Source of the DNA: Flavobacteriales bacterium
Lineage (GTDB): Bacteria; Bacteroidota; Bacteroidia; Palsa-965
Reading direction: 5' to 3'
DNA length: 64,000 nucleotides
Assembly: GCA_040377305.1 (NCBI GenBank)
Contig: JBEIPA010000002.1
Coordinates: 96,001-160,000 of the forward strand
The notes beneath the pieces were generated by a model. It saw only the letters and a list, made by a program, of their open reading frames with translations. It was not told where the DNA came from and did not search any database. Made by a program: the position numbers and the translations under genes. Positions 9,581-31,169 of the stretch are shown here, piece by piece (position 1 is the stretch's first letter; each line of letters starts with the position of its first letter).

Positions 9581-10174
9581 CTACCTCTTGTGACGAGCAG
9601 CCAGGACTTTTTCAACGTCACTTAGCGAATACCCCTTCGCAGATAAAAGCACGACATAGTGAAACAACAAATCAGCTGCTTCACCAAGAAACTTTTTCTC
9701 GTCATTGTCCTTCGATTCAATCACCAACTCAACAGCCTCCTCGCCTACTTTCTGCGCAATTTTATTAATCCCGGCAGCATAGAGTTGAGCTGTGTAGGAT
9801 GAAGATGGATCCGCACCTTTTCTTTTCTGGATAACTTCTTCCATCAAGGATAGAAAATTTCCTGTGTTTGATTCGCCCCAACACGTGTCTGTCCCCTTGT
9901 GACAAACCGGCCCGTTTGTCGTTGCTGTGATGAGAAGCGTATCGTTGTCGCAATCGAGTTTGATGGAAACAACATCCAGAAAATGTCCGCTCTCTTCACC
10001 TTTTGTCCACAAACGCTTTTTCGACCGCGAATAGAATGTGACACGATTACTCGCTTGTGTTGCCGCCAATGATTCAGCGTTCATATAACCAAGCATGAGA
10101 ACGTTATTGGTCACTGCATCCTGAATCACTGCAGGAATTAGTCCATCAGCATTTTTTGAGAAATCCGGATTCAT
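9581..10174 (-). CDS. hisIE: Bifunctional phosphoribosyl-AMP cyclohydrolase / phosphoribosyl-ATP diphosphatase
   Basis: [45 protein letters not shown]. Confidence 0.96.
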
Positions 10175-10926
10175 AATCTTATAGGTATTTCATTCATTCG
10201 TAAATACTTCTTCAGCGCCGGTATTTCAATCTCACCAAAGTGAAAAATACTTGCAGCTAATGCTGCGTCTGCCTTTCCATGGGTAAACACCTCCGAAAAA
10301 TGTTCGATAGTACCAGCTCCACCAGAAGCGATGATGGGCACATTCACCGATTCCGCAATTTCGCGTGTAAGTTCAATTGCAAAACCATTTTTTGTTCCAT
10401 CGTGATTCATAGATGTCAAAAGAATTTCTCCGGCACCGCGATCTACCGCTTCACGAATCCAATCCTGCGCCTTCCGACCAGAAGAAATTCTTCCACCATT
10501 CAGGAACACCGACCATTCTCCTACCTCAAACTTCACATCGACTGCCAACACAACACACTGACTCCCGAATTCCTTAGCCAACTCCGTAATTAATTCCGGA
10601 TTTCTTACCGCTGCAGAATTAACCGAAACTTTATCGGCACCATTCATCAACACGGCGCGCACATCATCTACAGATCCAATGCCTCCTCCAACAGTGAAAG
10701 GAATATTAATTGACGAAGCAACATTTCGCACTAACTCGGTCAACGTCTTCCTCTTCTCCTCCGTTGCAGTGATATCGAGAAACACAAGTTCATCCGCGCC
10801 TTGCTCTGCATAACGAACTCCTAACTCAATAGCGTCCCCGGCATCGCGGAGTCCTACGAAGTTCACGCCCTTCACGGTGCGACCATCCTTCACATCTAAA
10901 CAGGGAATGATTCTCTTCGTGAGCAT
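10171..10926 (-). CDS. hisF: Imidazole glycerol phosphate synthase, cyclase subunit
   Basis: [41 protein letters not shown]. Confidence 0.97.
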
Positions 10927-11657
10927 TACGTGTTTCGTGAATTAAACTGTTCCAATTGCTTGATCGATATCCGGTTCTCATAAATCGCCTTACCCACAAT
11001 TACACCTTCGCAACCAATTTCTTCAAGGCGGATAATGTCATCAATAGATGTCACTCCACCACTCGCAACCAGACGCAAGCCCGGACAACGCGCAATGAGC
11101 TTTCGATATAAATCTTCTGAGGGTCCCTCGAGTTTGCCATCCTTAGAAATATCCGTGCAGAAGAAATAATGGACGCGGTTACTCATCTGTTGCTGGATGA
11201 ATGAAACCACATCAATGTCGGTTTGTTCTGTCCATCCGTTAACTGCTATCTTTTCATCCCGGACATCAGCCCCAATGAAAAAACGTTCGGCTCCATACGT
11301 CGAAATCCATTCCCGAAATATTTTGGGCTCTTGCACTGCCAGACTACCTACAGTAGCATAAGCTGCCCCCGCATTCAAAACACTTTTCAGTTCAGTTTCC
11401 GTTTTGATACCTCCACCAAAATCAACCAACAAATCGGTATGCAGTGAAATTTCCTCCAGGATGTGAATATTTTTAACTGTGCCCGCTTTCGCACCATCCA
11501 AATCAACAACGTGCAATCGCTTTACACCTGCAGCTTCAAATTCTTTGGCTACATCCAGTGGTGCATCACTATAAACCACTTTGCGCGAATAGTCTCCTTC
11601 CGTAAGTCGCACGCATCTTCCATCAATAATGTCAATGGCAGGAATAATCTCAATCAT
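10926..11657 (-). CDS. hisA: ProFAR isomerase
   Basis: [36 protein letters not shown]. Confidence 0.97.
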
Positions 11658-12250
11658 AGGTCTAAAAAGTTTCGGATGATCGTTTCACCAACTACTCCAC
11701 TCTTCTCCGGGTGAAACTGCACGCCATAAAAATTGTTCTTCTCCAATCCTGCACTGAACGGACGAACATACGTTGTAATTGAATTTGTCTGTTCACACAC
11801 ATCCGCGCAAAATCCATGCACGTAATATACGAAGGCATTATCGCTGACACCTGTGTATAATTTGCTTTTGAGATGAGAGATATCATTCCATCCCACGTGC
11901 GGAATTTTACCTTCAAACACGCGAACACCCGAATCAAACCGTCGAACAGTTGTAGCGAATACCCCAAGCGCTTTTGTGTTGCCTTCTTCGCTGTAATCAC
12001 ACAACAATTGCATGCCAAGACACACGCCTAAAACCGGCTGCTCTAATCCGGTAATGACCTGATGCAATCCCGCATGCGTCAACGCACGCATCGCAGATGA
12101 AGCTTCTCCTACACCGGGAAATATCACTTTGTCTGCTGACATAATTACGGAAGCATCATCACTCACAATTGCGTCCACACCCAATCGATTCAGAGCAAAC
12201 TGAACAGAAGCTACATTTCCTGCGTTGTATTTTATGATAACTACTTTCAT
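11654..12250 (-). CDS. hisH: Imidazole glycerol phosphate synthase, glutaminase subunit
   Basis: AGNVASV, FPGVG, LGVCLGMQ, IPHVGWN, QFHPEKS. Confidence 0.96.
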   Translation of the reverse strand: MKVVIIKYNAGNVASVQFALNRLGVDAIVSDDASVIMSADKVIFPGVGEASSAMRALTHAGLHQVITGLEQPVLGVCLGMQLLCDYSEEGNTKALGVFATTVRRFDSGVRVFEGKIPHVGWNDISHLKSKLYTGVSDNAFVYYVHGFCADVCEQTNSITTYVRPFSAGLEKNNFYGVQFHPEKSGVVGETIIRNFLDL

Positions 12251-12819
12251 GCATTCAAAAAGTTAAGCATGATCTGTTCACCGTATTCCGTCATGATGGA
12301 TTCCGGATGAAACTGTACGGCAAAAATCTTTTGTGCCGCATCTTCAATAGCCATCACCTGATTTTGAGAATCGCGCACGGTCACTTTATAATTATTCGGT
12401 AATGTCATCTCGTCTATCACCCAGGAGTGATATCGTCCCGCGTTGAATCCTGATTTTACATTCGCAAAAAGCACCGAACCTTCATTCACTTGCATGGGAG
12501 TCGCCACACCATGATAAACTTTGTCGAGGTTGATGAGCTTTCCTCCTTCAGCAATACAAATGGCCTGCTGACCGAGGCACACCCCAAGAATTGGTTTCTT
12601 GCCTTTATACATTTTGATCAGAGCAAGAAGATCTCCGGCTTCTTCAGGAATTCCTGGTCCGGGAGAAAGTATAATGCGATCGTAAGTCGCTGCATGCTCC
12701 AATTGCAATTCGTTATTTCGCACAACTTCCACTTTCACATCCGGAGCAACTTTCTCCACGAGGTGAACGAGGTTGTAGGTGAACGAATCGTAATTGTCGA
12801 ATACCAATATCTTTTCCAT
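12247..12819 (-). CDS. trpG: Anthranilate / aminodeoxychorismate synthase component II (TrpG/PabA class I glutamine amidotransferase)
   Basis: DNYDSFTYNL, SPGPG, LGVCLGQQ, GRYHS, QFHPES. Its stop overlaps the hisH start (ATGA). Confidence 0.88.
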   Translation of the reverse strand: MEKILVFDNYDSFTYNLVHLVEKVAPDVKVEVVRNNELQLEHAATYDRIILSPGPGIPEEAGDLLALIKMYKGKKPILGVCLGQQAICIAEGGKLINLDKVYHGVATPMQVNEGSVLFANVKSGFNAGRYHSWVIDEMTLPNNYKVTVRDSQNQVMAIEDAAQKIFAVQFHPESIMTEYGEQIMLNFLNA

Positions 12820-12839
12820 CACTCAGTGTCTCTGGTTAC

Positions 12840-12868
12840 AAAAAAAGTCCGCTGTGTGAGCGGACTTT
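12840..12868 (-). terminator. Attenuator terminator upstream of trpG-hisHAF-IE
   Basis: mRNA AAAGUCCGCU-CACAC-AGCGGACUUU followed by a U run, about 20 nt before the trpG start. Confidence 0.85.
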
Positions 12869-12891
12869 GTTATAGTTACAACAACCACGAT

Positions 12892-12951
12892 TCACACGGT
12901 CCGGGATTCCGAAATATGTGCACAGTGTTTGTTGATTGTGATCTTGTTCAT
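12892..12951 (-). CDS. Putative leader peptide MNKITINKHCAHISESRTV
   Basis: The ATG lies 7 nt after a -7 element. The ORF ends in GTGTGA, which is complementary to TCACAC in the terminator (antiterminator pairing). Confidence 0.65.
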   Translation of the reverse strand: MNKITINKHCAHISESRTV

Positions 12952-12958
12952 TGCGATG

Positions 12959-12991
12959 CAAATATAATGTAGGAATTTCCACAAAACCAAA
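12959..12991 (-). promoter_or_regulatory. Bacteroidota promoter (-33 TTTG, 21-nt spacer, -7 TATATTTG)
   Basis: Forward-strand caaatata at 12959-12966 and caaa at 12988-12991. Confidence 0.7.
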
Positions 12992-13116
12992 TCAAAGGAG
13001 GAAACGGGATCCAGGAATTTGGGAATAGGGTATTCGGGCTATATGAATTACGTTAAACTCAGCCCAAAACCCCTTTTCCCTTATTTCCCTAATCCCTATT
13101 TCCCTACCTTTCTTGA

Positions 13117-14196
13117 ATGAGGATTTTCCTTCTCGCTGCAACTATTTGTCTAAGCATTGTCATCAACGCACGTCAAATCCAACCGGGTTTCGACAGCCAG
13201 GAATTTCGTAAAATGTTTCAGATAAGTGCGCATCAAACCGACACACCCTGGGTGAAACTTAAATTCCCGTATCCCGGCGGATACAACATGGTGTATCGCT
13301 CACCGGTTGGCGGTCTCGACAATCGTTGGGACATGTGGATGAGTCCGGACTCGGTTGCGGTGATCAGTATTCGCGGCACAACGGGAACGAACGAATCGTG
13401 GTTGGAGAATTTTTATGCCGGTATGATTCCCGCTGAAGGAACGTTGAACATGGGTAACGGAAAGTTGTTCGACTACAAACTTGCAGAAGATTCACTCGCT
13501 TATGTGCATATCGGCTGGACAATCGGAATGGCAAGCATGGCTCCTGAAATTGTTACGCAAATGAATCTGCAATACAACAAAGGCATTCGCGACTTCATCA
13601 TCATGGGACACAGTCAGGGAGGTGCAATTGCGCTCTTGTTGCATTCCTACCTGCACTACTTACCCGATTCAATTTTGCCGAATGACATTCGCGTAAAAAC
13701 GTATGGAAGTGCAGCACCGAAAGTTGGGAATCAGAAATTCTCTTACGATTTCGATTTCATTTCACGTGGCGGTTGGGCATTTCGGATTGTGAATTCAGTC
13801 GACTGGGTACCTGAATGTCCGTTCACCGTACAAACTACTAATGATCTCAGTCACGGAAATCCATTCGCAGAACCAGAACGCGCCGGATTAACAGGTCCCG
13901 CGAAAGTAATTGCGAATCACGTCATTCGTAAAATGAACCGGAAAGCAAAACGTGCGGAGAAACGATTCCGGAAATATCTCGCCATCAAAACAGGAAAGTT
14001 TGTACGCAAGAAAATTCCCGGCATGCCTAAACAGGAATACGTGAAAAGTATGGCATACGTAAGTTGTGGTTCGCCCATTGTACTTGTTCCGGATAAACAC
14101 TACTACGATCTGTATCCCGACAGAGGTGGAATTTTCACGAATCACTATTTCGGCCCGTATTACTATTTGTTGAACGTGTATTATCCGGTGAAGTAA
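13117..14196 (+). CDS. Lipase class 3 family protein (secreted)
   Basis: Signal peptide, ISIRGT, nucleophile elbow GHSQGG, and DWVP. Confidence 0.88.
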   Translation: MRIFLLAATICLSIVINARQIQPGFDSQEFRKMFQISAHQTDTPWVKLKFPYPGGYNMVYRSPVGGLDNRWDMWMSPDSVAVISIRGTTGTNESWLENFYAGMIPAEGTLNMGNGKLFDYKLAEDSLAYVHIGWTIGMASMAPEIVTQMNLQYNKGIRDFIIMGHSQGGAIALLLHSYLHYLPDSILPNDIRVKTYGSAAPKVGNQKFSYDFDFISRGGWAFRIVNSVDWVPECPFTVQTTNDLSHGNPFAEPERAGLTGPAKVIANHVIRKMNRKAKRAEKRFRKYLAIKTGKFVRKKIPGMPKQEYVKSMAYVSCGSPIVLVPDKHYYDLYPDRGGIFTNHYFGPYYYLLNVYYPVK

Positions 14197-15830
14197 TGAC
14201 GACAAAATTCAAATCAAACCGAATCTTGAAACTACTCACGGCAGTGCTTATTGTCGCTGCAATGATGTGGTTCACTCAAAATGAATCACAAGCGAATACA
14301 GAAAGTGAATTTGTCGCGGGTGAACTGATCGTTCAGGTAAAAGAAGTACTACCCGATAATTTATCTGCGCTCGGCATACATAGCGTTCAACAAATCTGCA
14401 AAGACAAAAATGGACAGAGCAAAATTTATGTTCTGCATTTTGATGAATCAGAAGATGTTGTCGCTAAGAAAGAAGACCTTTTACAAACCGGAAGTTTCAT
14501 TTGGGCAGAACCAAACGGCTTTATGAAAGGCTGTGTGACTCCGAACGACTCGATGTTCTTTCGGCAGTACGGATTGGAGAATCTCGGTTCATTCAATCTC
14601 ACATTCTCCACCGCAGATTCTGATTCTGATTTACCGGAAGCCTGGAACATCGAACAAGGCGACACGAATGTCGTTGTTGCAGTTCTCGACGGAGGAATTG
14701 CCTTGGCGCATCCTGAATTTGCAGGAAGGATTTGGCAGAACTACACCGAGAATCCCATCAATAATATTGACGACGATGGCAACGGCTACATCGACGATTA
14801 TCAAGGGTGGAATTTCGCTTATGATACAAATTCTCCCGCCGATGATCTCGGACACGGCACTTCTGTAGCTGGTGTCATTGGTGCAAACGCCAACAACGCA
14901 ATTGGTCTCGCCGGCGTTGACTGGAACTGTAAGCTCATGGTCTGCAAAGTTCTCGATGGAAGTAATTTCGGAACGTACGCCGATATCGCTGACGCCATTT
15001 ACTACGCAACGAACAACGGTGCAGATATCATCAACATGTCATTCTCTGGTGGAGCGTCGAGCACCATCACGAACGCGGTACAATACGCATGGAACAACAA
15101 CGTGGTGATGTGCGCTGCTTCCGGAAATGGAAATACATCTACTCCATCTTTTCCCGCAGCAGATTCATTGGTACTCGCAGTCGGTGGGAGCAATGCCTGG
15201 GATGTCCGCTACCAATTCAGTAATTACGGTCCTCACATCGATGTAGTCGCAGCCGGTGACTACGTGTACATTCTGGATTACGCCAACTTCTCCAACTACG
15301 GAACTTATTCAGGAGGAACCTCACTTGCTTCTCCTTTCGTTGCAGGAGTTGCTGCATTGCTCAAAGCACAGGACACCGCACGCACAAATTCAGAAATCTA
15401 CAACATCATTCGCGCAACCGCCGAAGACACCGTTGACGTTTTCACCGGAGAAGATGTTGTTGGCTGGGATCAGTATTTTGGTTTTGGAAGAGTGAATGCG
15501 CATTATGCGTTGTTGTATGATAGTTTGAGTTTGGCGACGCCAGATTTGTCACCCTTCGGCTCCGCTCAGTCTGACAAAACCAATCAAATGTCAATTTATC
15601 CGAATCCGTTTTCTGAACAGGCGACGATTTATTCGAGTGTGGAGTTGAATGATGCGACGGCGGAGATTTATGATGCGAGTGGGAAGTTGGTGAGGGAAAC
15701 CCGAAATGTTTTAGGAAATACGATTCCGTTGGTGAGAGGTGAATTGGCAAATGGGACGTATTTGGTTGTGGTCACTGAAGATGGGATAGTGATTGAGAGA
15801 ATAAGGTTTGTTATATCCAATCCGAATTGA
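14196..15830 (+). CDS. S8 subtilisin-like serine peptidase with T9SS type A sorting domain
   Basis: VAVLDGG (Asp), GHGTSVAG (His), GTSLASP (Ser), and C-terminal IYPNPF...IYDASGKLV...GTYLV. Confidence 0.92.
   Translation: MTTKFKSNRILKLLTAVLIVAAMMWFTQNESQANTESEFVAGELIVQVKEVLPDNLSALGIHSVQQICKDKNGQSKIYVLHFDESEDVVAKKEDLLQTGSFIWAEPNGFMKGCVTPNDSMFFRQYGLENLGSFNLTFSTADSDSDLPEAWNIEQGDTNVVVAVLDGGIALAHPEFAGRIWQNYTENPINNIDDDGNGYIDDYQGWNFAYDTNSPADDLGHGTSVAGVIGANANNAIGLAGVDWNCKLMVCKVLDGSNFGTYADIADAIYYATNNGADIINMSFSGGASSTITNAVQYAWNNNVVMCAASGNGNTSTPSFPAADSLVLAVGGSNAWDVRYQFSNYGPHIDVVAAGDYVYILDYANFSNYGTYSGGTSLASPFVAGVAALLKAQDTARTNSEIYNIIRATAEDTVDVFTGEDVVGWDQYFGFGRVNAHYALLYDSLSLATPDLSPFGSAQSDKTNQMSIYPNPFSEQATIYSSVELNDATAEIYDASGKLVRETRNVLGNTIPLVRGELANGTYLVVVTEDGIVIERIRFVISNPN
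15546..15577 (+). repeat. 32-nt palindromic REP-like element inside the S8 peptidase CDS
   Basis: TTGTCACCCTTCGGCTCCGCTCAGTCTGACAA, 29/32 identical to the copy in hisC. Confidence 0.85.
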
Positions 15831-15843
15831 ACAAAATCAAGCC

Positions 15844-16179
15844 ATGAGTTTTGGAAAACATACCATCAGTGCAATTAAAGTTCAAATCACTAGTTACACT
15901 AGTGATGATAATCCTGGATTCGTCGAGTGCAGATTTCATGACGCATGGAATAAGGAACACGTTATCCATGATAAAGTTCCCGTTGTAACATTAGAGAATC
16001 TCGATGCGAACAGTGCCTACCCTCGCCCCGGTGTTATTGGATGCACCGTAATCAAGGAATGGATGGATGAGAACGGACGTGAAATAATCTCGGTAACCAC
16101 TGAAAAACCGTGGGCAATTGATTCCACCGAGGGCAATTACGAATTCGATATATTGGCTAGTCAAATTACAGAAATATGA
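15844..16179 (+). CDS. Hypothetical protein
   Basis: ORF with probable ATG at 15844 (PGFVECRFHDAW..DKVPVV..KPW). Its stop overlaps the next start. Confidence 0.7.
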   Translation: MSFGKHTISAIKVQITSYTSDDNPGFVECRFHDAWNKEHVIHDKVPVVTLENLDANSAYPRPGVIGCTVIKEWMDENGREIISVTTEKPWAIDSTEGNYEFDILASQITEI

Positions 16180-16517
16180 ATCCTGTTATCCCCTTCCAAA
16201 CCACATCCTGGTCCTCCCTCCCTTCCACCGAACACAAAGGAGACACGGGCACCGCCTTCTGGAAAACCCTCGAGTTCCCCGGTCTCCGCATCCGCATGGT
16301 TGAATATTCTCCGAACTACCTCGCCGATCACTGGTGCGAAAAAGGTCACATCATTTATTGCATCGAAGGAGAAATGGATACTGAGTTGGCTGATGGAAGC
16401 ATTCATAAACTCTCTGTGGGAATGTCATATCAGGTTTCAGACGGCTTGAGCTCGCACCGAACGAGTTCGAAGAATGGTGTGAAGCTGTTTATTGTGGATG
16501 GGAATTTTTTGAAATAA
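16176..16517 (+). CDS. DHCW-motif cupin-fold protein
   Basis: RMVEYSPNYLADHWCEKGH, SYQVSD..SSHR, KLFIVD. Confidence 0.88.
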   Translation: MNPVIPFQTTSWSSLPSTEHKGDTGTAFWKTLEFPGLRIRMVEYSPNYLADHWCEKGHIIYCIEGEMDTELADGSIHKLSVGMSYQVSDGLSSHRTSSKNGVKLFIVDGNFLK

Positions 16518-16539
16518 GTTCAATTAATACAATGGTATC

Positions 16540-16884
16540 ATGACCTCTCGAGACTTTGCCAAAGCATTTCATTACGAAAAGGAAAATCTTCTTGACCTTT
16601 ACTTTGAACGTAAGCAAACTCCAAACAACCACCGCGCAGAAGTAAGTATATTAATAGACCGATTGCACCTTGACTCCGATCAAAAAGAAACACTTCACAA
16701 AATGGTTGATAGTGTAATTACAGATGTGATGTACGCCATTCTGCTTGGTTTAGATGGTAGTGGTACAATTGGTAATCTTAGACAACAAGATTATAACATT
16801 ACTGATGAAGAAGGAAACACTGTGACTGACGGAGAATTGGGCGATGCTGCATACGATATTTTTCATGGAGATCAATCTGTGTAA
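16540..16884 (+). CDS. Hypothetical acidic protein
   Basis: 114-aa ORF containing ILLGLDG; the sequence is visibly more AT-rich than its neighbours. Confidence 0.7.
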   Translation: MTSRDFAKAFHYEKENLLDLYFERKQTPNNHRAEVSILIDRLHLDSDQKETLHKMVDSVITDVMYAILLGLDGSGTIGNLRQQDYNITDEEGNTVTDGELGDAAYDIFHGDQSV

Positions 16885-16928
16885 TCTGTCCCGACAGTAA
16901 ACGTCGGGACGGCAAAAGAAAACCACTC

Positions 16929-18083
16929 ATGATGAAACTGAAACTTCTTTATACAATCGTCTCTCTCCTCTTAGTTTCGACAACCGAGATCTTTGGAGCC
17001 TCAGACCCCTGCGACTCTGTAACCCTCACAAAACTGCCCGGACCAACACCAGCCTTCAACGCGGACAGTTCACTCTACCTCATCAACAAACTCGATAGAA
17101 CCGGAAAGAAAGGCGTCTACCAGATTTACATCGGCAAACGCGGCGATAAAGATTCCGTGCTCACCTGCATTTCGCTCAATGGTCCTGCCAACCGCCCTGA
17201 TTCCGAAGTCGGACGAGGCAAAAAACGTCCCTTCAAAAAACTCCACAAGATGCAAGTGCAATGGCACGCGTCCGGAAAGTTTATCATCTGCGCTGTCGAG
17301 TGGGATGATTATAACGAACTGCACTACACACCTTACAAAACACGACTCGGACTTCTTCAGTGCGGAATCTGGATGGACATTTACGCCGTTACGCCCGATG
17401 GAAAAACCTGGACGCGACTCGTAAAAACTGTTCGCGGATTCACCGGTCCTGCATTCACAGTTGATGGCAGCAAATGCTCCTGGGCAGAAGGACAAGACAG
17501 CGCTGATCTTCGCAAAGACAAATTCGGAAAATGGAAACTGAAGTTCGCCGAGTTTCAGGTCAACAACGGTGTTCCGTCGCTCACCAACATCAAAGACATC
17601 ACACCGAAAAATACAAACTGGGTAGAGCCCGGAAATTTTCATCCCGACGGACAACGTTTGCTCATCACTGCAGATTGCGGAATGACAGACGCACGCGGAC
17701 AAGATCAATTCATCATCAATGTCTACACCGGAGAACTCATCAATCTCAACAACACACCAAACGTCTGGGATGAACACGGACTCTTCTCCGCCGACGGATC
17801 AAAAATTGTGTGGATGAGTTCCTATCCCTATCGCAGCGATCCGAATTCCTATCGCATCATCAGCATCAAAACCGAATTCATGATCATGAACACTGATGGC
17901 TCCGATCAGCGTCAACTCACGCACTTCTGCGAAAAAGGCTATCCCGAATATGGTGCAGGCATAGCAGCTGTCGGCTGGTTCGAACCGGATGGATATTCCA
18001 TTACCGGATACACACTCCTTTTTCCGTACTACAATTTTTTCAGCATCCAATTCAACGGTCCCTGCGGCAAGGCTCAAAAATAA
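16929..18083 (+). CDS. TolB-like / PD40 beta-propeller secreted protein
   Basis: Signal peptide and repeated WHASGK, TPDGK, FHPDGQ, FSADGSKIV, MNTDGSDQRQLT units. Confidence 0.78.
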   Translation: MMKLKLLYTIVSLLLVSTTEIFGASDPCDSVTLTKLPGPTPAFNADSSLYLINKLDRTGKKGVYQIYIGKRGDKDSVLTCISLNGPANRPDSEVGRGKKRPFKKLHKMQVQWHASGKFIICAVEWDDYNELHYTPYKTRLGLLQCGIWMDIYAVTPDGKTWTRLVKTVRGFTGPAFTVDGSKCSWAEGQDSADLRKDKFGKWKLKFAEFQVNNGVPSLTNIKDITPKNTNWVEPGNFHPDGQRLLITADCGMTDARGQDQFIINVYTGELINLNNTPNVWDEHGLFSADGSKIVWMSSYPYRSDPNSYRIISIKTEFMIMNTDGSDQRQLTHFCEKGYPEYGAGIAAVGWFEPDGYSITGYTLLFPYYNFFSIQFNGPCGKAQK

Positions 18084-18148: not shown

Positions 18149-19258
18149 TTATAGTACACCTTTCGTTGTCGGTAAAGAGTTATCTCCTGTATTTCTCTTC
18201 ACCGCCATCTTCACCGCTTTCGCAAACGCCTTAAACACACTCTCAATTTTGTGGTGCTCATTCTCTCCTTCCGCCTTGATGTTGAGATTACACTTCGCTG
18301 CATCACTAAACGACTTGAAGAAGTGAAAAAACATTTCCGTCGGAACATCACCAATCTTCTCCCGCTTAAATTCCGTCTCCCATTCTATCCACGGACGACC
18401 ACCAAAATCAATCGCAACCTGCGCCAAACAATCATCCATCGGTAACAGAAATCCGTAGCGTTCAATTCCGCGTTTATCGCCAAGCGCTTTTGCAAAACAT
18501 TCGCCGAGTGCAATTCCCGTATCTTCAATCGTGTGATGCTCATCAATATGCAAATCACCTTTCGCATCTATATTCAAGTCAATCGCGCCGTGCTTCGCAA
18601 TCTGCTCCAGCATGTGATCGAAGAAATTCAATCCGGTTTTGATTTCTGCCTTTCCCGTTCCGTCAAGATTGAGCTGAATCTGAATATCCGTTTCATTCGT
18701 CTTCCGAACTACAGACGCAACGCGCGATGGCTTCCGAAGAAATTCGTAAATCTCTTTCCATCCATCACAGATCAACGTAATCTTGTCTTCCCAACCATCG
18801 GCCTTGTCGTAATTGCGAATGAGAATTGATTTACAACCGAGATTCTGTGCAAGCTTAACGTCCGTAATCCGATCACCAATCACAAATGAATTTGCAAGAT
18901 CGTATTCGCCGGTCATGTACTTCGTGAGCATTCCCGTTCCAGGTTTACGCGTCGGAAGATTTTCTTCAGGATAACTTTTGTCAATGCACACTTCCGAAAA
19001 ATGAACGCTCTCATTCTCCAAACTCTCCATCACAAAATTCTGCACAGGCCAAAACGTTTCTTCCGGATACTTCTCCGTTCCCAACCCATCCTGATTCGTT
19101 ACCATCACCAATTCGAATTTACACTCCTCCGCAATCTTGCGCAGGTATGTAAACATTCCCGGCAGAAATTTCAGCTTAGAGAAACTATCAATCTGAAACG
19201 TATCCGGTGGCTCCCAGATCAACGTTCCATCGCGATCAATAAAAAGTACCTTTTTCAT
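18149..19258 (-). CDS. hisB: Bifunctional histidinol-phosphatase / imidazoleglycerol-phosphate dehydratase
   Basis: FIDRDGT HAD motif, [31 protein letters not shown]. Confidence 0.97.
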
Positions 19259-19271
19259 ATACTACCTTTTT

Positions 19272-19335
19272 TTGACCACTAAGCGCACAAAGACACAAAG
19301 CAATTTCTTTGTGTCTTCGTGAACTTCGTGGTCAA
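19272..19335. repeat. Imperfect inverted repeat between hisC and hisB
   Basis: TTGACCAC..AAGACACAAAG pairs with CTTTGTGTCTT..GTGGTCAA; the repeat contains the hisC stop. Confidence 0.75.
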
Positions 19336-20429
19336 TTTTTTATTTGTTCGAGCCTTGTAACAAGTTGAATGTTTTCTTCTGGTGTCCCTACAGTAATTCT
19401 AAGGCATCCTTCACACATCTCCACCTTCGATCTATCCCGCACCACAATCCCATTCTCCGCCAGAAAATCATACACACCTTTCGCATCATCCACTTTCACC
19501 AGCACAAAATTCGCATCACTCCCATAAATCTTCCTCACAAAAGCCAACTGCCCGAGCGCCTTCACCAACTTCTCTCTCTCCGCAACTGTTTCCTTAATCC
19601 ACGCATTCACCTGCTCAATATTCCCTAGCGCGTTCAACACTATTTCCTGCGCCGGACTTCCAATATTGTACGGAGGTTTAATTTTATTCATGATCTCCAC
19701 TATCGCTTCCGAAGCAAACAACATTCCCACTCTCACTCCCGCCAATCCCCACGCCTTCGAAAACGTTTGTAACACCACCAGATTCGGATACTCCGTCAGT
19801 TCAGAAATCATGGGCCGTTGCCGCGAATAATTCACATACGCTTCGTCCACTACAACCAATCCCTCGAAATTATTCAGGATAATTTCAATGTCTTCCCGAT
19901 TCATACTATTCCCCGTCGGATTATTCGGAGAACAAATCCAAATGATTTTCGTTTGATCGTCAACCGCCTCAGATATCTTCTCCACATCAAGCTGAAATTC
20001 CGCAGTGAGATTCACCTTGCGAACTTCAACATCATTAATATTCGCACTCACTTCGTACATACCATACGTCGGTGGAACAATGATCACATTGTCCTTCCCC
20101 GGATTACAAAACGCCCGATACAACAGATCAATCGCTTCATCACTGCCATTCCCAAGAAAAATGTTGTGAGCAGGAACACCTTTGATAAATGATATTTTCC
20201 CCTTCAACTCTTCCTGCAGCGGATCGGGATAACGGTTGTAGTTCGACTTGTCAGACTGAGCGGAGTCGAAGGCGGACAATGTCGTACCGAAGACTGGCAC
20301 CGGACTACCGAAACCATTCTCGTTCGCATCCAAATACACTTTCGCTTCTCCCGTAAACTCATGTCTCGCGGACGAGTATGGCTTCAGGTCTCGGATATTT
20401 TCTCTAACTATTTTATTTACGTCGAACAT
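19332..20429 (-). CDS. hisC: Histidinol-phosphate aminotransferase
   Basis: LDANEN, NRYPDP, GNGSDEAI, CSPNNPTG, DEAY, TFSKAWGLAGVRVG. Confidence 0.97.
   Translation of the reverse strand: MFDVNKIVRENIRDLKPYSSARHEFTGEAKVYLDANENGFGSPVPVFGTTLSAFDSAQSDKSNYNRYPDPLQEELKGKISFIKGVPAHNIFLGNGSDEAIDLLYRAFCNPGKDNVIIVPPTYGMYEVSANINDVEVRKVNLTAEFQLDVEKISEAVDDQTKIIWICSPNNPTGNSMNREDIEIILNNFEGLVVVDEAYVNYSRQRPMISELTEYPNLVVLQTFSKAWGLAGVRVGMLFASEAIVEIMNKIKPPYNIGSPAQEIVLNALGNIEQVNAWIKETVAEREKLVKALGQLAFVRKIYGSDANFVLVKVDDAKGVYDFLAENGIVVRDRSKVEMCEGCLRITVGTPEENIQLVTRLEQIKN
20248..20279 (-). repeat. 32-nt palindromic REP-like element inside hisC
   Basis: Coding-sense TTGTCCGCCTTCGACTCCGCTCAGTCTGACAA, encoding LSAFDSAQSDK. 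Confidence 0.85.
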
Positions 20430-20501
20430 ATTCCTTGAACATTGAACATCGTGCGTTGAACATTGAGCGTTTCATTCGAGTGCCCACCCACACCACCCTC
20501 C

Positions 20502-20528
20502 ATCGGCATATCGGCATATTGGCACATC
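20502..20528. repeat. ATCGGCAY octamer array x3
   Basis: Same unit as the arrays at 7532 and 27886, here in the hisD-hisC spacer. Confidence 0.8.
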
Positions 20529-20533
20529 ACTTC

Positions 20534-21814
20534 CTACTGTTGTTTCATCCGTATCGAGACCGCATTTCGGTGCGCCAGTAACCCTTCCGCCTCCGCCATC
20601 ACCTCCACAGTCCTCGCAATTTGCGAAAGTCCTTCTCTCGTCAGCTTTTGAAACGTAATCTTTTTCACAAACGAATCTACGGAAACTCCGCTCCATCCTT
20701 TTGCATTTCCACTGGTTGGCAGTGTGTGATTTGTTCCTGTAGCGTAGTCCCCAGCACTCTCGGGCGACCATTCTCCAATGAAAACACTGCCCGCATTCAC
20801 AACACGTGTACTCAAGAGCTCCGCGCGATCACACGCAAGAATCAAGTGCTCCGGTGCGTATTCGTTCAGCAATTCAATTCCTTGTTCAGCAGTTTGTACA
20901 AGAATCGCAAGACTGTTCTCGAGCGACTTCGTGGCAAATTCATTCCTAAGCAACCCTGACAGCTGAAATTCAATTTGCGCGCGCACATCTTCAATCACCT
21001 TTTTGCTTGTGCTCACCAACACAACCTGACTATCCGCACCGTGCTCGCATTGTGAAAGCAAATCAGCAGCAACAAAAGCCGGATTCACACGCTCATCTGC
21101 AAACACCGCAAGTTCAGAAGGACCTGCAGGCATATCAATCGGAAATCCATCCTTCGCAATCAACTGCTTCGCCATCGTAACCCACGAATTTCCCGGACCA
21201 AATATTTTGTACACCGGAGAAATAGTTTGTGTTCCATAACGCATTGCTGCAATGGCCTGCGCTCCTCCGATTTTGTAAATTTCTGTTACACCACACTCAC
21301 TCGCTGCATATAAAATGGCAGGATTAATATTTCCATTTTTATCTGGCGGTGTACACAAGATAATTCGTTTACAGCCGGCTATCGATGCAGGAATCGCGAG
21401 CATGAGCACCGTAGAAAACAATGGCGCAGTTCCGCCCGGAATATAAAGTCCTACTGATTCTATGGGAACACTTTTTCTCCACACACGAATGCCAGGCATT
21501 GTCTCCATCGAGTCTTCAGGACAAATCACAAACTTGTGAAACTTGCGAATGTTCTCCGATGCAATCTTAATTGCCAGTTTCAACTCCGGTTTAATCTGCG
21601 CCCTTGCAGCTTCAATCTCCGCTGTTGAAACACGAATGGAATCCAGATTTACTTTATCTATTTGGGAAGTTAGTTCGGCAACCGCTACATCACCTCTCTG
21701 AGCCACATCGTTGAGGATACGCAACACCTGTTCTTCTGTTGCCGAAGAAGCCGTTTTCGGACGAACAAATAATTCTCTCCAGCTTGTTCGCTCTGGAAAT
21801 TCTACATATTTCAT
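20534..21814 (-). CDS. hisD: Histidinol dehydrogenase
   Basis: GLYIPGG, KIFGPGN, IDMPAGPSE, DLLSQCEH, APEHL, GDYATGTNHTLPT. Confidence 0.97.
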   Translation of the reverse strand: MKYVEFPERTSWRELFVRPKTASSATEEQVLRILNDVAQRGDVAVAELTSQIDKVNLDSIRVSTAEIEAARAQIKPELKLAIKIASENIRKFHKFVICPEDSMETMPGIRVWRKSVPIESVGLYIPGGTAPLFSTVLMLAIPASIAGCKRIILCTPPDKNGNINPAILYAASECGVTEIYKIGGAQAIAAMRYGTQTISPVYKIFGPGNSWVTMAKQLIAKDGFPIDMPAGPSELAVFADERVNPAFVAADLLSQCEHGADSQVVLVSTSKKVIEDVRAQIEFQLSGLLRNEFATKSLENSLAILVQTAEQGIELLNEYAPEHLILACDRAELLSTRVVNAGSVFIGEWSPESAGDYATGTNHTLPTSGNAKGWSGVSVDSFVKKITFQKLTREGLSQIARTVEVMAEAEGLLAHRNAVSIRMKQQ

Positions 21815-22665
21815 ATCACCATCTTTTCAATCGGTACAACCAAAATTCCTTGCGCACCTTCATCGCGAAGGTTTTCGATAATTTCCCAAAACTGATTTTC
21901 TTCAATCACCGAGTGGACAGAGCTCCAGCCTTCCTCCGCCAGCGGCAAGATTGTCGGACTCTTCATTCCGGGAATCAAGGAACAGATTTTCTCCAGCTTA
22001 TCATTCGGCGCATTCAATAAAACATACTTGTTGCTTTTCGCTTTTCGTACAGCGCGCATGCGAAACAACAAACGATCAATAATCTTGTTCGCCTCTGCAT
22101 CACATTTTCCGCTGATCAATACAGCCTGAGAATGCATCACCGTTTCCACTTCCTTCAATCCATTCGAGAAAAGTGTACTTCCGCTACTCACGATGTCACA
22201 AATAGCATCTGCCAATCCAATGCCCGGTGCTATTTCTACTGAACCACTAATCGGTGTGATCTGTGCATTCACGAACTTCTCGTCCAAAAACTTCTGCAAC
22301 ACGTTGCTGTAAGTTGTTGCAATTCTTGACCCGGAAAGATCATTCACACCAGTATAGTTCTTCTCCTTCGGTACAGCAATACTCAACCTGCACTTGCCAA
22401 AGCCAAGCTTCTCCGTAATAGTCACATCCGCCGTCGATTCAACAAGGACGTTCTCCCCAACTATTCCAATATCTGCAACGCCCTGTTCCACATACTTCGG
22501 AATATCATCATCACGCAGAAACAAAACCTCCATCGGGAAATTAATCGCCGCCGATTTCAGTTTATTCATTCCGTTTTCGAATTCAACTCCACATTCCTTC
22601 AGCAATCGAATCGACTCTTCATTAAGCCGACCTGATTTCTGTATTGCTATTCTGATTTTTTTCAT
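21811..22665 (-). CDS. hisG: ATP phosphoribosyltransferase (long form)
   Basis: IAIQKSGRL, RDDDIP, GSVEIAPGIGLADAICD, and the C-terminal regulatory domain PGMKSPT. Confidence 0.97.
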   Translation of the reverse strand: MKKIRIAIQKSGRLNEESIRLLKECGVEFENGMNKLKSAAINFPMEVLFLRDDDIPKYVEQGVADIGIVGENVLVESTADVTITEKLGFGKCRLSIAVPKEKNYTGVNDLSGSRIATTYSNVLQKFLDEKFVNAQITPISGSVEIAPGIGLADAICDIVSSGSTLFSNGLKEVETVMHSQAVLISGKCDAEANKIIDRLLFRMRAVRKAKSNKYVLLNAPNDKLEKICSLIPGMKSPTILPLAEEGWSSVHSVIEENQFWEIIENLRDEGAQGILVVPIEKMVI

Positions 22666-22717: not shown

Positions 22718-22746
22718 GAAAAAGGGCCTGCAAAACTGCAAGCCCT
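22718..22746 (-). terminator. his attenuator terminator
   Basis: mRNA AGGGCUUGCA-GUUU-UGCAGGCCCUUUUU. The 5' arm GCUUGCAG can instead pair with CUGCAAGC at the end of the leader. Confidence 0.88.
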
Positions 22747-22771
22747 CGAGTATAGTCATAGACACAATTCC

Positions 22772-22828
22772 TCAAAGCTTGCAGTGATGCAGCATATGAT
22801 GATGGAAAGTTGTCTTGTTCATGTTCAT
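22772..22828 (-). CDS. his operon leader peptide MNMNKTTFHHHMLHHCKL
   Basis: 18 codons including 5 His, between a consensus promoter and the terminator upstream of hisG. Confidence 0.9.
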   Translation of the reverse strand: MNMNKTTFHHHMLHHCKL

Positions 22829-22833
22829 GATGG

Positions 22834-22866
22834 CAAATGTATAAAAGTTTTAGTACGTCACACAAA
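22834..22866 (-). promoter_or_regulatory. his promoter (-33 TTTG, 21-nt spacer, -7 TACATTTG)
   Basis: Forward-strand caaatgta at 22834-22841 and caaa at 22863-22866. Confidence 0.75.
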
Positions 22867-28016: not shown

Positions 28017-28964
28017 CTAGTAGTGCCACAAATCATGCTCCGTATTCATAATATCTTCTTTGATTGCTTCCGACTCCAGCAGTGCATCAAGTCCGCCGGT
28101 ATAGGCATTGATCGGACGATCGTACACATTCGTTTCCTTGTGAATGTAACTGCCGAAAAATCGCTTCTGAAACATATCGTCGTAAGTCAAACGTTGTGCA
28201 TTGTTTTGACCGATATAAACTTCGTGACGCACCAACAGCGGACGTATTTGCGGAAAGTAAATCCAGAACAGCGGCATGAATCCAAGTACTTCACCTGTTG
28301 ATGGATCTGTTTTTTCTTTCAGCGGACACAATCCGATAATGCGAACATCCATCACCGAGCGTTGTTTGTCGAAGAACCAATCTTCTTTCACCCAGTAGGC
28401 TTTGATATGTGTGCTCTCAATTGGATTCTCAATCGTATCCGTAATCCATGTGCCGGGATTGTTCGGATCTTCCACCTGAATAATTTCGAACGGAAGCAAC
28501 AGTTCTTTCACTGCAGGAATGCTCATCGGCACTTTGAATTCATCATCCATCGTCGGATTGTCGAATGCGGTGATACAACCATAGAGAATTCCTCCTTTGA
28601 TGATATCGAACAAACTCGCGAGTCCTCCGTGCGGTGTTTCCGGATAGTAGTACGGATGATTCATCTTCTCGCGCAAATCAATCGTGCGCCAGATTCGTTT
28701 CGACCACATCACATCGGCTTCACGCAGATACGGATATGGAATCACACGACGATCATCGCTCGCACGTGGTCCGGATGGTGCACCCGGATCGAGAATCGTT
28801 CCTTCTTTCGGTGGACAGGGATTGTAGGGTTGTGCACACACCCGCGTAAATGCGAAGAGTGCACCGAAGAACATGAGCAGCTTGAAGAACACACTGATTT
28901 CATGAATCAGGAATTCGTAGAAGCTGTTTGTACGCGGGCGGTGTTTCTGGACAGGTGGGTACAT
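28017..28964 (-). CDS. gldN: Gliding motility GldN/PorN paralog 3
   Basis: [47 protein letters not shown]. Confidence 0.9.
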
Positions 28965-29144
28965 AAGATACTCCTCTCGTTTTTTAGATTGTTACTTGAC
29001 CGCGTAACGTTTTGCATGATTCAGTTTTTTGGAACCTGTATAAACAAACGCGTGCTACCCGCGCTTTAGTATGCTCACTCTAAAAACAAGAGGAGAAACA
29101 ACCCATGCTGCTTCTCGCTCCTGTCCGCAAAAACACGACTTACC

Positions 29145-30011
29145 TTAGAAATGCCACACGTCGTGTTCGTAATTTGAAATGTCGCTTTTGATTCTGTCTG
29201 CCTCGAGAAGTGCATCAATACCGGTTGCGTAATTGTTGATGCTTCTGTCGTACACGTTCGATTCTTTGTGCTCAAAGCTTGCGAACATGCGCTTCATGAA
29301 AATGTCATCTGCAGAGCAACGTTGTGCATCATTCTTCGTGTTGAATACTTCACTGTTCGCGAAGATCTGACGGCACTCAGGGAAATACACCCAGAACAAA
29401 GCTTTGTATCCAACCACTACACCATTCACCGACTTCTCCTGCAATGGACACAATCCGATTATGCGCACATCCATCACAGAACGCTGTTTGTCAAAGAACC
29501 AATCTTCTTTCATCCAGTACTGTTTTACTTCACGCGATTCAAGATCAACTCTCACCCCAACTCGTTTATAGGTTCCGGGGAAATTCGGATCCTCTACATC
29601 CATTGAATCGATTTGTACAAACAATGAATCAATCGATCCTTTGCTCATCTTCACTTTAAACTCGTCGTCAAACACAGGATTATCGAAGGCGTGAATCGCA
29701 CCACTCATCAAACCGTTCTTGATAATATCGAACAAGCTTTTGCGGTCGTTGATCGGACTCTCCGGAAAGTAAAGCGGGTGATTAAATTTCTCGCGAAGAT
29801 CCAAAGTACGCCACACGCGCTTTGACCACATGATATCCGTTTCACGCTCGTGTACATAAGGTGTAGCGCGACGATTACGTGTATTCTCCTTCACGTACGG
29901 ATACTGCGCAACCTGTGCATTCAAACGTGCAGGCATGATTCCTTCGATGCAGAGCTGCACGAGCAGCACCAGGACGAAGTTTCTGAGGGTTTTGATGGCG
30001 TTGTGTGTCAT
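29145..30011 (-). CDS. gldN: Gliding motility GldN/PorN paralog 2
   Basis: [41 protein letters not shown]. Confidence 0.9.
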   Translation of the reverse strand: MTHNAIKTLRNFVLVLLVQLCIEGIMPARLNAQVAQYPYVKENTRNRRATPYVHERETDIMWSKRVWRTLDLREKFNHPLYFPESPINDRKSLFDIIKNGLMSGAIHAFDNPVFDDEFKVKMSKGSIDSLFVQIDSMDVEDPNFPGTYKRVGVRVDLESREVKQYWMKEDWFFDKQRSVMDVRIIGLCPLQEKSVNGVVVGYKALFWVYFPECRQIFANSEVFNTKNDAQRCSADDIFMKRMFASFEHKESNVYDRSINNYATGIDALLEADRIKSDISNYEHDVWHF

Positions 30012-30087
30012 AATTTATGCTCCTTTCTAATTGCTTGTTTGAAGGCATAAAACACGGGAAGAGGAAAAGTCACAAAGTTTTTTTGTA

Positions 30088-30250
30088 ATCCAGTAGGAGT
30101 TGAGCGCTGCCAGGGTTTTTCAGGATGCCTCGACCGACACCCTGCAGGAGTTAAACGCTTGCAGGGTTAGGAAGTGGATACCCTTCAAGGGCTTAACCCT
30201 TGAAGCCTTGAATCGTAGACACCCTGCAGGAGTTAAACGCTTGCAGGGTT
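30088..30250. repeat. Array of about four REP-like palindromes
   Basis: Exact 33-nt direct repeat GACACCCTGCAGGAGTTAAACGCTTGCAGGGTT at 30136 and 30218, plus variants near 30088 and 30180. Confidence 0.85.
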
Positions 30251-30256
30251 TATCTC

Positions 30257-30293
30257 AAAAAAAATCCCCCGGGTATTAGCCGAGGGATCTTTT
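30257..30293 (-). terminator. Rho-independent terminator after gldKLMN
   Basis: Minus-strand ATCCCTCGG-ctaatac-CCGGGGGAT followed by T8. Confidence 0.7.
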
Positions 30294-30308
30294 ATGCGTT
30301 AGCACCGT

Positions 30309-31169
30309 TTAAAAGTGCCACAAATCGTGTTCGTAAACGAAGATATCGCCTTTGATGCGTTCTGATTCCAGGAGCGCGTCCAGACCCGTGTAATACGACT
30401 GAATGTTACGGTCGTAAACGTTGGTTTCTTTGTGGACGTAGCTCTGGAACATACGCTTCCAGAAAATATCATCGATGGAGCGACGCTCAGCATCCGTTTT
30501 GAGGTTATACACCTCAGCCTGCGCAAACGTTTGTCTGCACTGCGGGAAATACACCCAGAACAGCGGCAGGTAACCAACAACCTCACCGGTCGACGGATCT
30601 TGCTTTTCTTTCATTGGGCAAAGTCCCAGGATACGAACGTCCATAACAGAACGTTGTTTGTCGAAGAACCAGTCTTCCTTCATCCAATACGCTTTCACGT
30701 TGTTTGTAAGAAGCTCGGTTTTGATCGGCGCGAGGATATACGTTCCAGGGTTATTCGGATCTTCTACCTGATTGGTAGAATCCCACTGTACGAAGAGGCC
30801 TTCAATTGCCGCCTTCGACATTTTAACCTTGAACTCGTCGTCCATTGCAGGATTATCGAAAGCAGTAATTGTTCCTGCCATCAATGCATCCTTCAATACG
30901 TCGAACAAGCTACGACGGTCTTGAATTCTTGATTCAGGATAGTACAACGGATGGTTGAACTTTTCCCTCATATCCAGCGTACGCCATACGCGCTTTGACC
31001 ACATAACGTCTGCTTCACGCAGGTACGTGTACGGAATCGGGCGACGTGTACGGGTGTTTTCCTTCAGGTAAATCTGATCAGGAAAATTCGGATCGAGAAT
31101 CTGCGCATCGGATGAACCGAACGACAGGATCACGACAACCGCTACCAGTAAGAATCTGAACCTTTTCAT
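30309..31169 (-). CDS. gldN: Gliding motility protein GldN (operonic copy)
   Basis: Follows gldM; signal peptide; [21 protein letters not shown]. Confidence 0.93.
   Translation of the reverse strand: MKRFRFLLVAVVVILSFGSSDAQILDPNFPDQIYLKENTRTRRPIPYTYLREADVMWSKRVWRTLDMREKFNHPLYYPESRIQDRRSLFDVLKDALMAGTITAFDNPAMDDEFKVKMSKAAIEGLFVQWDSTNQVEDPNNPGTYILAPIKTELLTNNVKAYWMKEDWFFDKQRSVMDVRILGLCPMKEKQDPSTGEVVGYLPLFWVYFPQCRQTFAQAEVYNLKTDAERRSIDDIFWKRMFQSYVHKETNVYDRNIQSYYTGLDALLESERIKGDIFVYEHDLWHF

Follow-up and report, generated by a model that had tools for sequence, protein, structure and literature searches.

In the DNA analyzed here, a 64,000-nucleotide stretch of a Flavobacteriales contig (the window), the genes hisH, hisA, hisF, and hisIE lie behind a trpG that has no trpE beside it and behind a leader frame that holds His codons but no Trp codons. 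The locus raises the question of how a leader of this type came to stand before the second half of the his genes and what it may sense. A preliminary description proposed that a trp operon lost trpE and its distal genes and captured hisHAF-IE and that its attenuator either decayed or was re-coded from Trp to His sensing. We compared the locus with related genomes and folded the leader RNA with a ribosome mask.

Organization of the locus

Table 1. Features of the locus, in window coordinates
Feature	Position	Strand	Evidence or remarks
hisIE	9581..10174	-	NCBIfam
hisF	10171..10926	-	NCBIfam
hisA	10926..11657	-	NCBIfam
hisH	11654..12250	-	NCBIfam; overlaps trpG stop
trpG/pabA glutamine amidotransferase	12247..12822	-	TIGR00566, 178.6 bits versus cutoff of 121; Cys/His/Glu motifs
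Putative trpE 3'-end scar	12825..12834	-	10 nt equal to last trpE codons of sister locus L075, in the 17-nt pre-trpG spacer
Intrinsic terminator	12840..12868	-	10-pair stem (12868-12844) and 7-U tract
Predicted antiterminator	12854..12897	-	GUGUGA and UCACAC around the terminator 5' arm; ViennaRNA with ribosome mask
Leader frame	12892..12951	-	ATG at 12951, 19 codons (MNKITINKHCAHISESRTV), TGA ending at 12892; 2 His, 0 Trp; ortholog of the genus trp leader
Control region His9-Cys10-Ala11-His12	12916..12927	-	His-Trp-Trp-His in relatives; former Trp codons 12924-12919
Predicted Bacteroidota-type promoter	12959..12991	-	TTTG 12991-12988, TATATTTG 12966-12959, 21-nt spacer
Six opposite-strand ORFs	13117..18083	+	Putative lipase, S8 protease with T9SS tail, four others
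hisG-hisD-hisC-hisB, first his-cluster half	18149..22665	-	NCBIfam; 5 kb upstream
Separate ordinary His attenuator before hisG	22722..22841	-	Promoter box 22841-22834, terminator 22747-22722

As first described, a promoter is followed by a leader with two His and no Trp codons, and trpG, for which a start about 20 nt past the terminator and no trpE had been noted, begins 17 to 20 nt after the U tract (Table 1). The ATGA coupling given for the whole gene block applies to three junctions, which overlap by 4 nt, and not to hisA/hisF, which overlap by 1 nt. Because the six opposite-strand ORFs part hisB from the leader, the distal block must have a promoter of its own. The predicted promoter is of the Bacteroidota type, and a TAnnTTTG box also precedes the orthologous leaders of relatives. 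The label of the putative lipase derives from a GHSQG motif, that ORF having no NCBIfam match. The DNA separating the promoter from the start of this gene contains a long imperfect inverted repeat (12990 to 13118), which gave rise to spurious plant miRNA matches in the Rfam scan. Elsewhere in the window, three tandem, mutually similar ORFs (28017 to 31169, minus strand) beside a putative GldM-like ORF resemble gliding-motility GldN paralogs. An assembly artifact was considered for the locus and rejected, since this region is spanned by one 10.5-kb contig of a possible source run and the trpG-hisH junction is crossed by contigs from two other studies.

The leader before hisG has 18 codons from 22828, five of them His, and the hisG leaders read across the genus hold runs of three to four His. 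The trpG leader is without the adjacent-His run typical of a hisL-like leader, its two His codons standing three codons apart.

The preliminary description had also called for a search of the genome for trpE/D/C/F/B/A and pabB. The genome (99.99% complete) was without trpD, trpC, trpF, trpB, and trpA by family search and tblastn, and the organism is therefore a predicted Trp auxotroph. trpE was likewise absent, the single chorismate-binding gene in the genome being PabB-like (best match PabB, 312 bits, just under the cutoff of 328), and folP was present. The 10-nt scar in the spacer before trpG is likely, from its match to the sister locus, a remnant of the trpE 3' end, and hisH begins at an ATGA overlap where trpD begins in the sisters. 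trpG is the sole member of its family in the genome, and the 26 of 27 genus genomes in which TrpG was matched each have one copy, in one case divided between two contigs. A single copy fits one amidotransferase for both Trp and folate synthesis, which would explain why trpG was retained, and these gene contents suggest that the retained trpG is likely PabA, serving PabB in folate synthesis. Bacillus subtilis TrpG/PabA is amphibolic, one amidotransferase serving TrpE and PabB. The genus genomes with a match are alike in having a single amidotransferase, with or without a trp operon; the window enzyme differs in that it can keep the folate role only, in a predicted pairing with PabB, with trpG cotranscribed with hisH.

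Descent of the leader and of the gene order

Thirteen intact trp leaders from relatives, two close sisters among them and the window excluded, served to build a covariance model (R1); one of the 13 rows, here and in the counts below, is the unpublished genome G012, on which no conclusion rests. R1 scored the window leader at 78.4 bits (E of about 8e-15 under a rough calibration), and the window's own hisG leader was absent from its matches at E of ≤1. The position of the leader, between the lipase-like gene and trpE or trpG, is common to the window and its relatives. Judged by this score and by synteny, the leader is the ortholog of the genus trp attenuator.

Scoring with the Rfam Bacteroid-trp model (RF01692; gathering threshold, 49 bits), which had been suggested as a check of descent, gave no match in the window, and the Rfam scans as a whole yielded nothing that reached threshold. 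The same model matched 0 of 27 genus genomes, intact Trp-Trp leaders included, and its miss therefore says little on descent. The window leader has Cys-Ala where Bacteroid-trp leaders carry Trp codons, and the one trp biosynthesis gene behind it is trpG. The Rfam Trp_leader model (RF00513) gave a weak match, 22 bits against a cutoff of 41. A strict genome-wide scan for promoter-leader-terminator units returned three units but was insensitive, the hisG leader being missed; a scan of genome contigs returned four loci only, and a pattern scan of metagenomes found trp leaders at 4 of 120 loci, the rest being mostly generic terminators.

The order found in relatives is hisGDCB-[leader]-trpEGDCFBA-aroF-hisHAF-IE. 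trpE precedes trpG in 11 of the 25 other trpG-bearing genomes of the genus; the trp-aroF block runs into hisH in nine of these 11, and the other two break at contig ends. Both genomes of the sister genus g19 are nested as well. The remaining 14 of the 25 (six of them <90% complete) are without trpA, and trpG is followed by hisH in 11 of them. In genus g18 the his operon is contiguous and separate from trp (4/4 genomes seen). In another Bacteroidota order, represented by 201 genomes, the matches listed (7 trpG matches being unlisted) included no case of trpG beside hisH, and a leftover leader was found in 0 of 20 hisH upstream regions of that order.

From this comparison of gene orders we conclude that hisHAF-IE was not captured; rather, trpE and the genes from trpD to aroF were deleted around trpG. 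The proposal that the attenuator was left by a trp operon that lost trpE and its distal genes therefore stands on homology, gene order, and the genome search, while the proposed capture fails because the nested order is already present in nine of the 11 trpE-bearing relatives. That a free-standing trp operon captured hisHAF-IE and had its Trp codons converted to His is suggested by a leader with two His and no Trp, but we regard it as very improbable: nesting is the ancestral arrangement both of the genus and of g19, and the alignments refute the conversion, the His codons flanking Trp positions that are now Cys-Ala.

Trees of TrpG and HisH join the window to trp-bearing sisters (98/88, 99/98, and 100/99), and the branches involved are short. 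These branches suggest that its trp loss was recent and apart from those of G010/G014, G004-G006, and G021/G042. At three further loci (L041, L045, and L046, of G023, G008, and G001) hisH stands right behind trpG, though the locus has none of hisG, D, B, A, F, and IE, and this hisH is an orphan amidotransferase with no HisF nearby. At four of seven loci scanned, a tRNA-Trp lies between the trp attenuator and trpE (L035:10330-10401, L040:10635-10706, L179:10085-10156, and L180:10139-10210), where it would be under Trp attenuation. Locus L187 has two tandem Trp-Trp leader-terminator units before trpE.

Control codons and predicted folds of the leader

Every readable leader from the trp-bearing g1 and g19 genomes (13 in all) contains Trp-Trp-(Trp)-His, and a His also stands before the Trp codons in 12 of the 13. 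At the nearest sister locus, L155, the leader reads MKITINKHWWHVSNPRTV. The H-W-W-H of the intact leaders is H-C-A-H in the window, and the alignment indicates that the window's two His codons are inherited and not replacements of Trp. Re-coding from Trp to His is thereby contradicted, as the His codons flank the Trp positions, which read Cys-Ala. A shift to His sensing did not come about by a gain of His codons, but it is still plausible by loss of the Trp input. A decayed attenuator, the other option first put forward, fits poorly with changes that are concentrated in the Trp codons while the switch is intact.

In comparison with three sisters, window-specific changes affect four of six bases in the Trp codons versus three of 54 elsewhere (Fisher p=0.001). 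The start, the stop, the length, and 31 terminator bases are unaltered relative to the sisters, and one hairpin pair is altered on both sides. At the four-fold sites of trpG, 49 of 73 differ from the trp-bearing sister L075, in a count that leaves out the G015 rows, which are out of frame. A gapped alternative, in which a two-base gain offsets two single-base losses, fits equally, and the frame is likewise kept. The coverage of run X2 excludes the leader, and a contig from another study (X3; depth about 3) spans 12888 to 13072 with three other letters and no gaps. None of the differences listed for X3 falls on the former Trp codons, where reverting both to Trp would take four. Just past the leader stop, the loose end of this contig (12879 to 12888) diverges and resembles the relatives, so that the extra antiterminator pairs of the window may be strain specific.

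In the trp leaders of g18, a His stands before the Trp pair in 0 of 5 and after it in 1 of 5, a contrast that amounts to one evolutionary event. In an outside sample of hand-picked trp loci, mostly of one other order and with some non-nested loci possibly once nested, the Trp run was followed by His in 9 of 26 non-nested versus 8 of 10 nested leaders (p=0.025, with kin that are not independent) and preceded by His in 1 of 26 versus 1 of 10. This sample dropped 7 of 43 trp loci, three without trpE in the stretch and four without a Trp-Trp leader.

Folding of the nascent RNA bore out the pairing of UCACAC with GUGUGA in the preliminary description (12859-12854 with 12897-12892). Under the ribosome mask in ViennaRNA, the antiterminator had −15.5 kcal/mol with the A site at His12 and −18.9 kcal/mol at His9, and both His codons fell inside the stall window permitting it. 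With the ribosome at the stop codon, the terminator alone was predicted to remain (−14.2 kcal/mol), and the untranslated RNA was predicted to fold as protector plus terminator. The predicted folds thus have the architecture of a ribosome-mediated attenuator, in which a short leader frame overlaps an antiterminator and a terminator that exclude each other. In the protector hairpin, all 13 aligned leaders have His12 paired with the end of the leader, and His9 is unpaired in the consensus fold. The terminator is identical over 31 nt in four trp-bearing sisters, and covariation in it is present among relatives. The predicted antiterminator of the window (−15.5 kcal/mol) compares with −12.5 and −12.7 kcal/mol in sisters.

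In the mechanism that we propose, ribosome stalling at His9 or His12 would leave GUGUGA unpaired, the antiterminator formed by the freed GUGUGA would take the terminator 5' arm, and transcription would proceed; a ribosome at the stop codon, or an absence of translation, would allow the terminator to form. In the nested ancestor, the flanking His codons would have been used since half of the His pathway sat behind the switch and would have been off unless His starvation opened it. Removal of Trp-Trp would then leave His as the sole input. Sensing of Cys by the window leader was considered and rejected, as there is a single codon and no tie to the downstream genes.

Fates of the leader after trp loss

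Other relatives that have lost trp genes show different leaders at this position. G004 and G006 have no trpA, yet on a long branch they keep Trp-Trp before trpG-hisH, G006 having lost His12; loss of the Trp codons is thus not obligatory. In G010 a leader before trpG-hisH has four His, three of them in a run (L049:11167-11272), and in G014 such a leader has Trp-Asn-His-His, with two adjacent His (L044:4746-4852); both have a different antiterminator. R1 gave these second leaders 25.3 and 22.2 bits, and the hisG leaders of the same genomes scored higher (32.0 and 36.8 bits), so that it is the position of the second leaders that suggests a possible descent from trp leaders. No leader was found in 7 of 11 trpG-hisH relatives. 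At L056 (G005), deletion has removed both attenuators: trpG directly follows the trp promoter and the beginning of its leader, and hisG is leaderless.

We favor, with a probability of roughly 0.55, the reading that a leader likely responsive to His as well as Trp lost its Trp input and would now be a weak His-only attenuator of trpG(pabA)-hisHAF-IE. The homology to trp leaders and the retention of the frame, the hairpins, and the two inherited His codons argue for it, as do the position of both His codons in the stall window, the keeping of His9 although it is unpaired in the consensus, and the absence of a His codon ahead of Trp-Trp in g18, whose his operon is apart from trp. Engineering two Ser codons into the Salmonella his leader gives it an additional response to serine starvation (PMC4046918). 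Few, separated control codons give low sensitivity (PMC1183508), however, and two separated His codons should on that account respond weakly. Moreover, the pairing of His12 means that RNA structure alone could preserve it, His after Trp is frequent without downstream his genes, the Trp-Trp kept by G004 and G006 speaks against strong selection, and most trpG-hisH relatives are those without a detected leader. The last points, except that of G004 and G006, also favor the main rival, in which a translation-coupled dampener or general starvation sensor sets basal expression of pabA and hisHAF-IE, the Trp codons having been lost to uncouple it from Trp supply and His being kept mainly for base pairing. 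PabA needs no His control, and an antiterminator predicted to be stronger than those of the sisters would lift basal read-through, although its extra pairs may belong to the strain (X3 contig). We hold such a dampener to be possible but distinctly less probable than His-only attenuation, as His9 is kept though unpaired in the consensus and is missing from g18 leaders and as His runs arose at this position in a second lineage.

That the leader is a dead relic, its Trp codons merely the first to mutate, appears unlikely. The short TrpG branch indicates a recent trp loss, unconstrained Trp codons change without positive selection, and synonymous divergence from the sisters is near saturation, all of which would suit neutral decay. 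At the rate of the Trp codons, however, the few changes elsewhere and the absence of any among the 31 terminator bases are improbable; a dead leader with an intact terminator would throttle needed his genes, and the gapped alignment implies that the frame was restored.

The window leader is like Bacteroid-trp (RF01692; Weinberg 2010, PMC2864571), which stands before trp genes, in being a Bacteroidota leader peptide with a terminator, and the Bacteroid-trp alignment file records both UGG and CAY codons (PMC2864571); it differs in that it has no Trp codons and no trp gene other than trpG, with his genes following. A trp operon nested in the his operon has been described, without expression data, in Thermoflavifilum thermophilum and Filimonas lacunae (Del Duca 2021, PMC8305728), in the same nested order as in the relatives of the window. 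The main text of that paper does not contain the word "leader" or describe the state after trp loss, of which the window is a derived example. With enterobacterial trpL and hisL (Trp_leader, RF00513) the locus has in common a leader frame, protector, antiterminator, and terminator, here predicted, but it has just two nonadjacent His codons in a trp-descended leader before his genes. PMC2965389 describes swaps between sensing systems and not a trp-less leader state, for which we found no description in the open-access literature, a search that may miss older comparative surveys of attenuators. The window leader is a lineage-specific form of a known attenuator in which a trp leader has lost its Trp codons and retained its switch.

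For the family as a whole, we tentatively suggest, with somewhat less than even confidence, that the H-W-W-H leader senses two amino acids for the nested trp/his operon and that repeated trp losses were resolved differently: by keeping Trp (G004 and G006), by erasing Trp and keeping His (the window, the youngest), by His runs (G010 and G014), or by deleting the leader (G005, G021, and G042). If true, this would be a natural series in which attenuator specificity shifts by subtraction from a dual sensor. A change of attenuator specificity is usually inferred across distant phyla; here a single genus offers a state like the ancestral one, a derivative recently formed in one step, and further outcomes, a few bases apart in a 110-nt element. 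It thereby becomes testable whether His codons on both sides of the Trp codons make such a leader a dual sensor and whether dropping two codons suffices to re-aim the switch.
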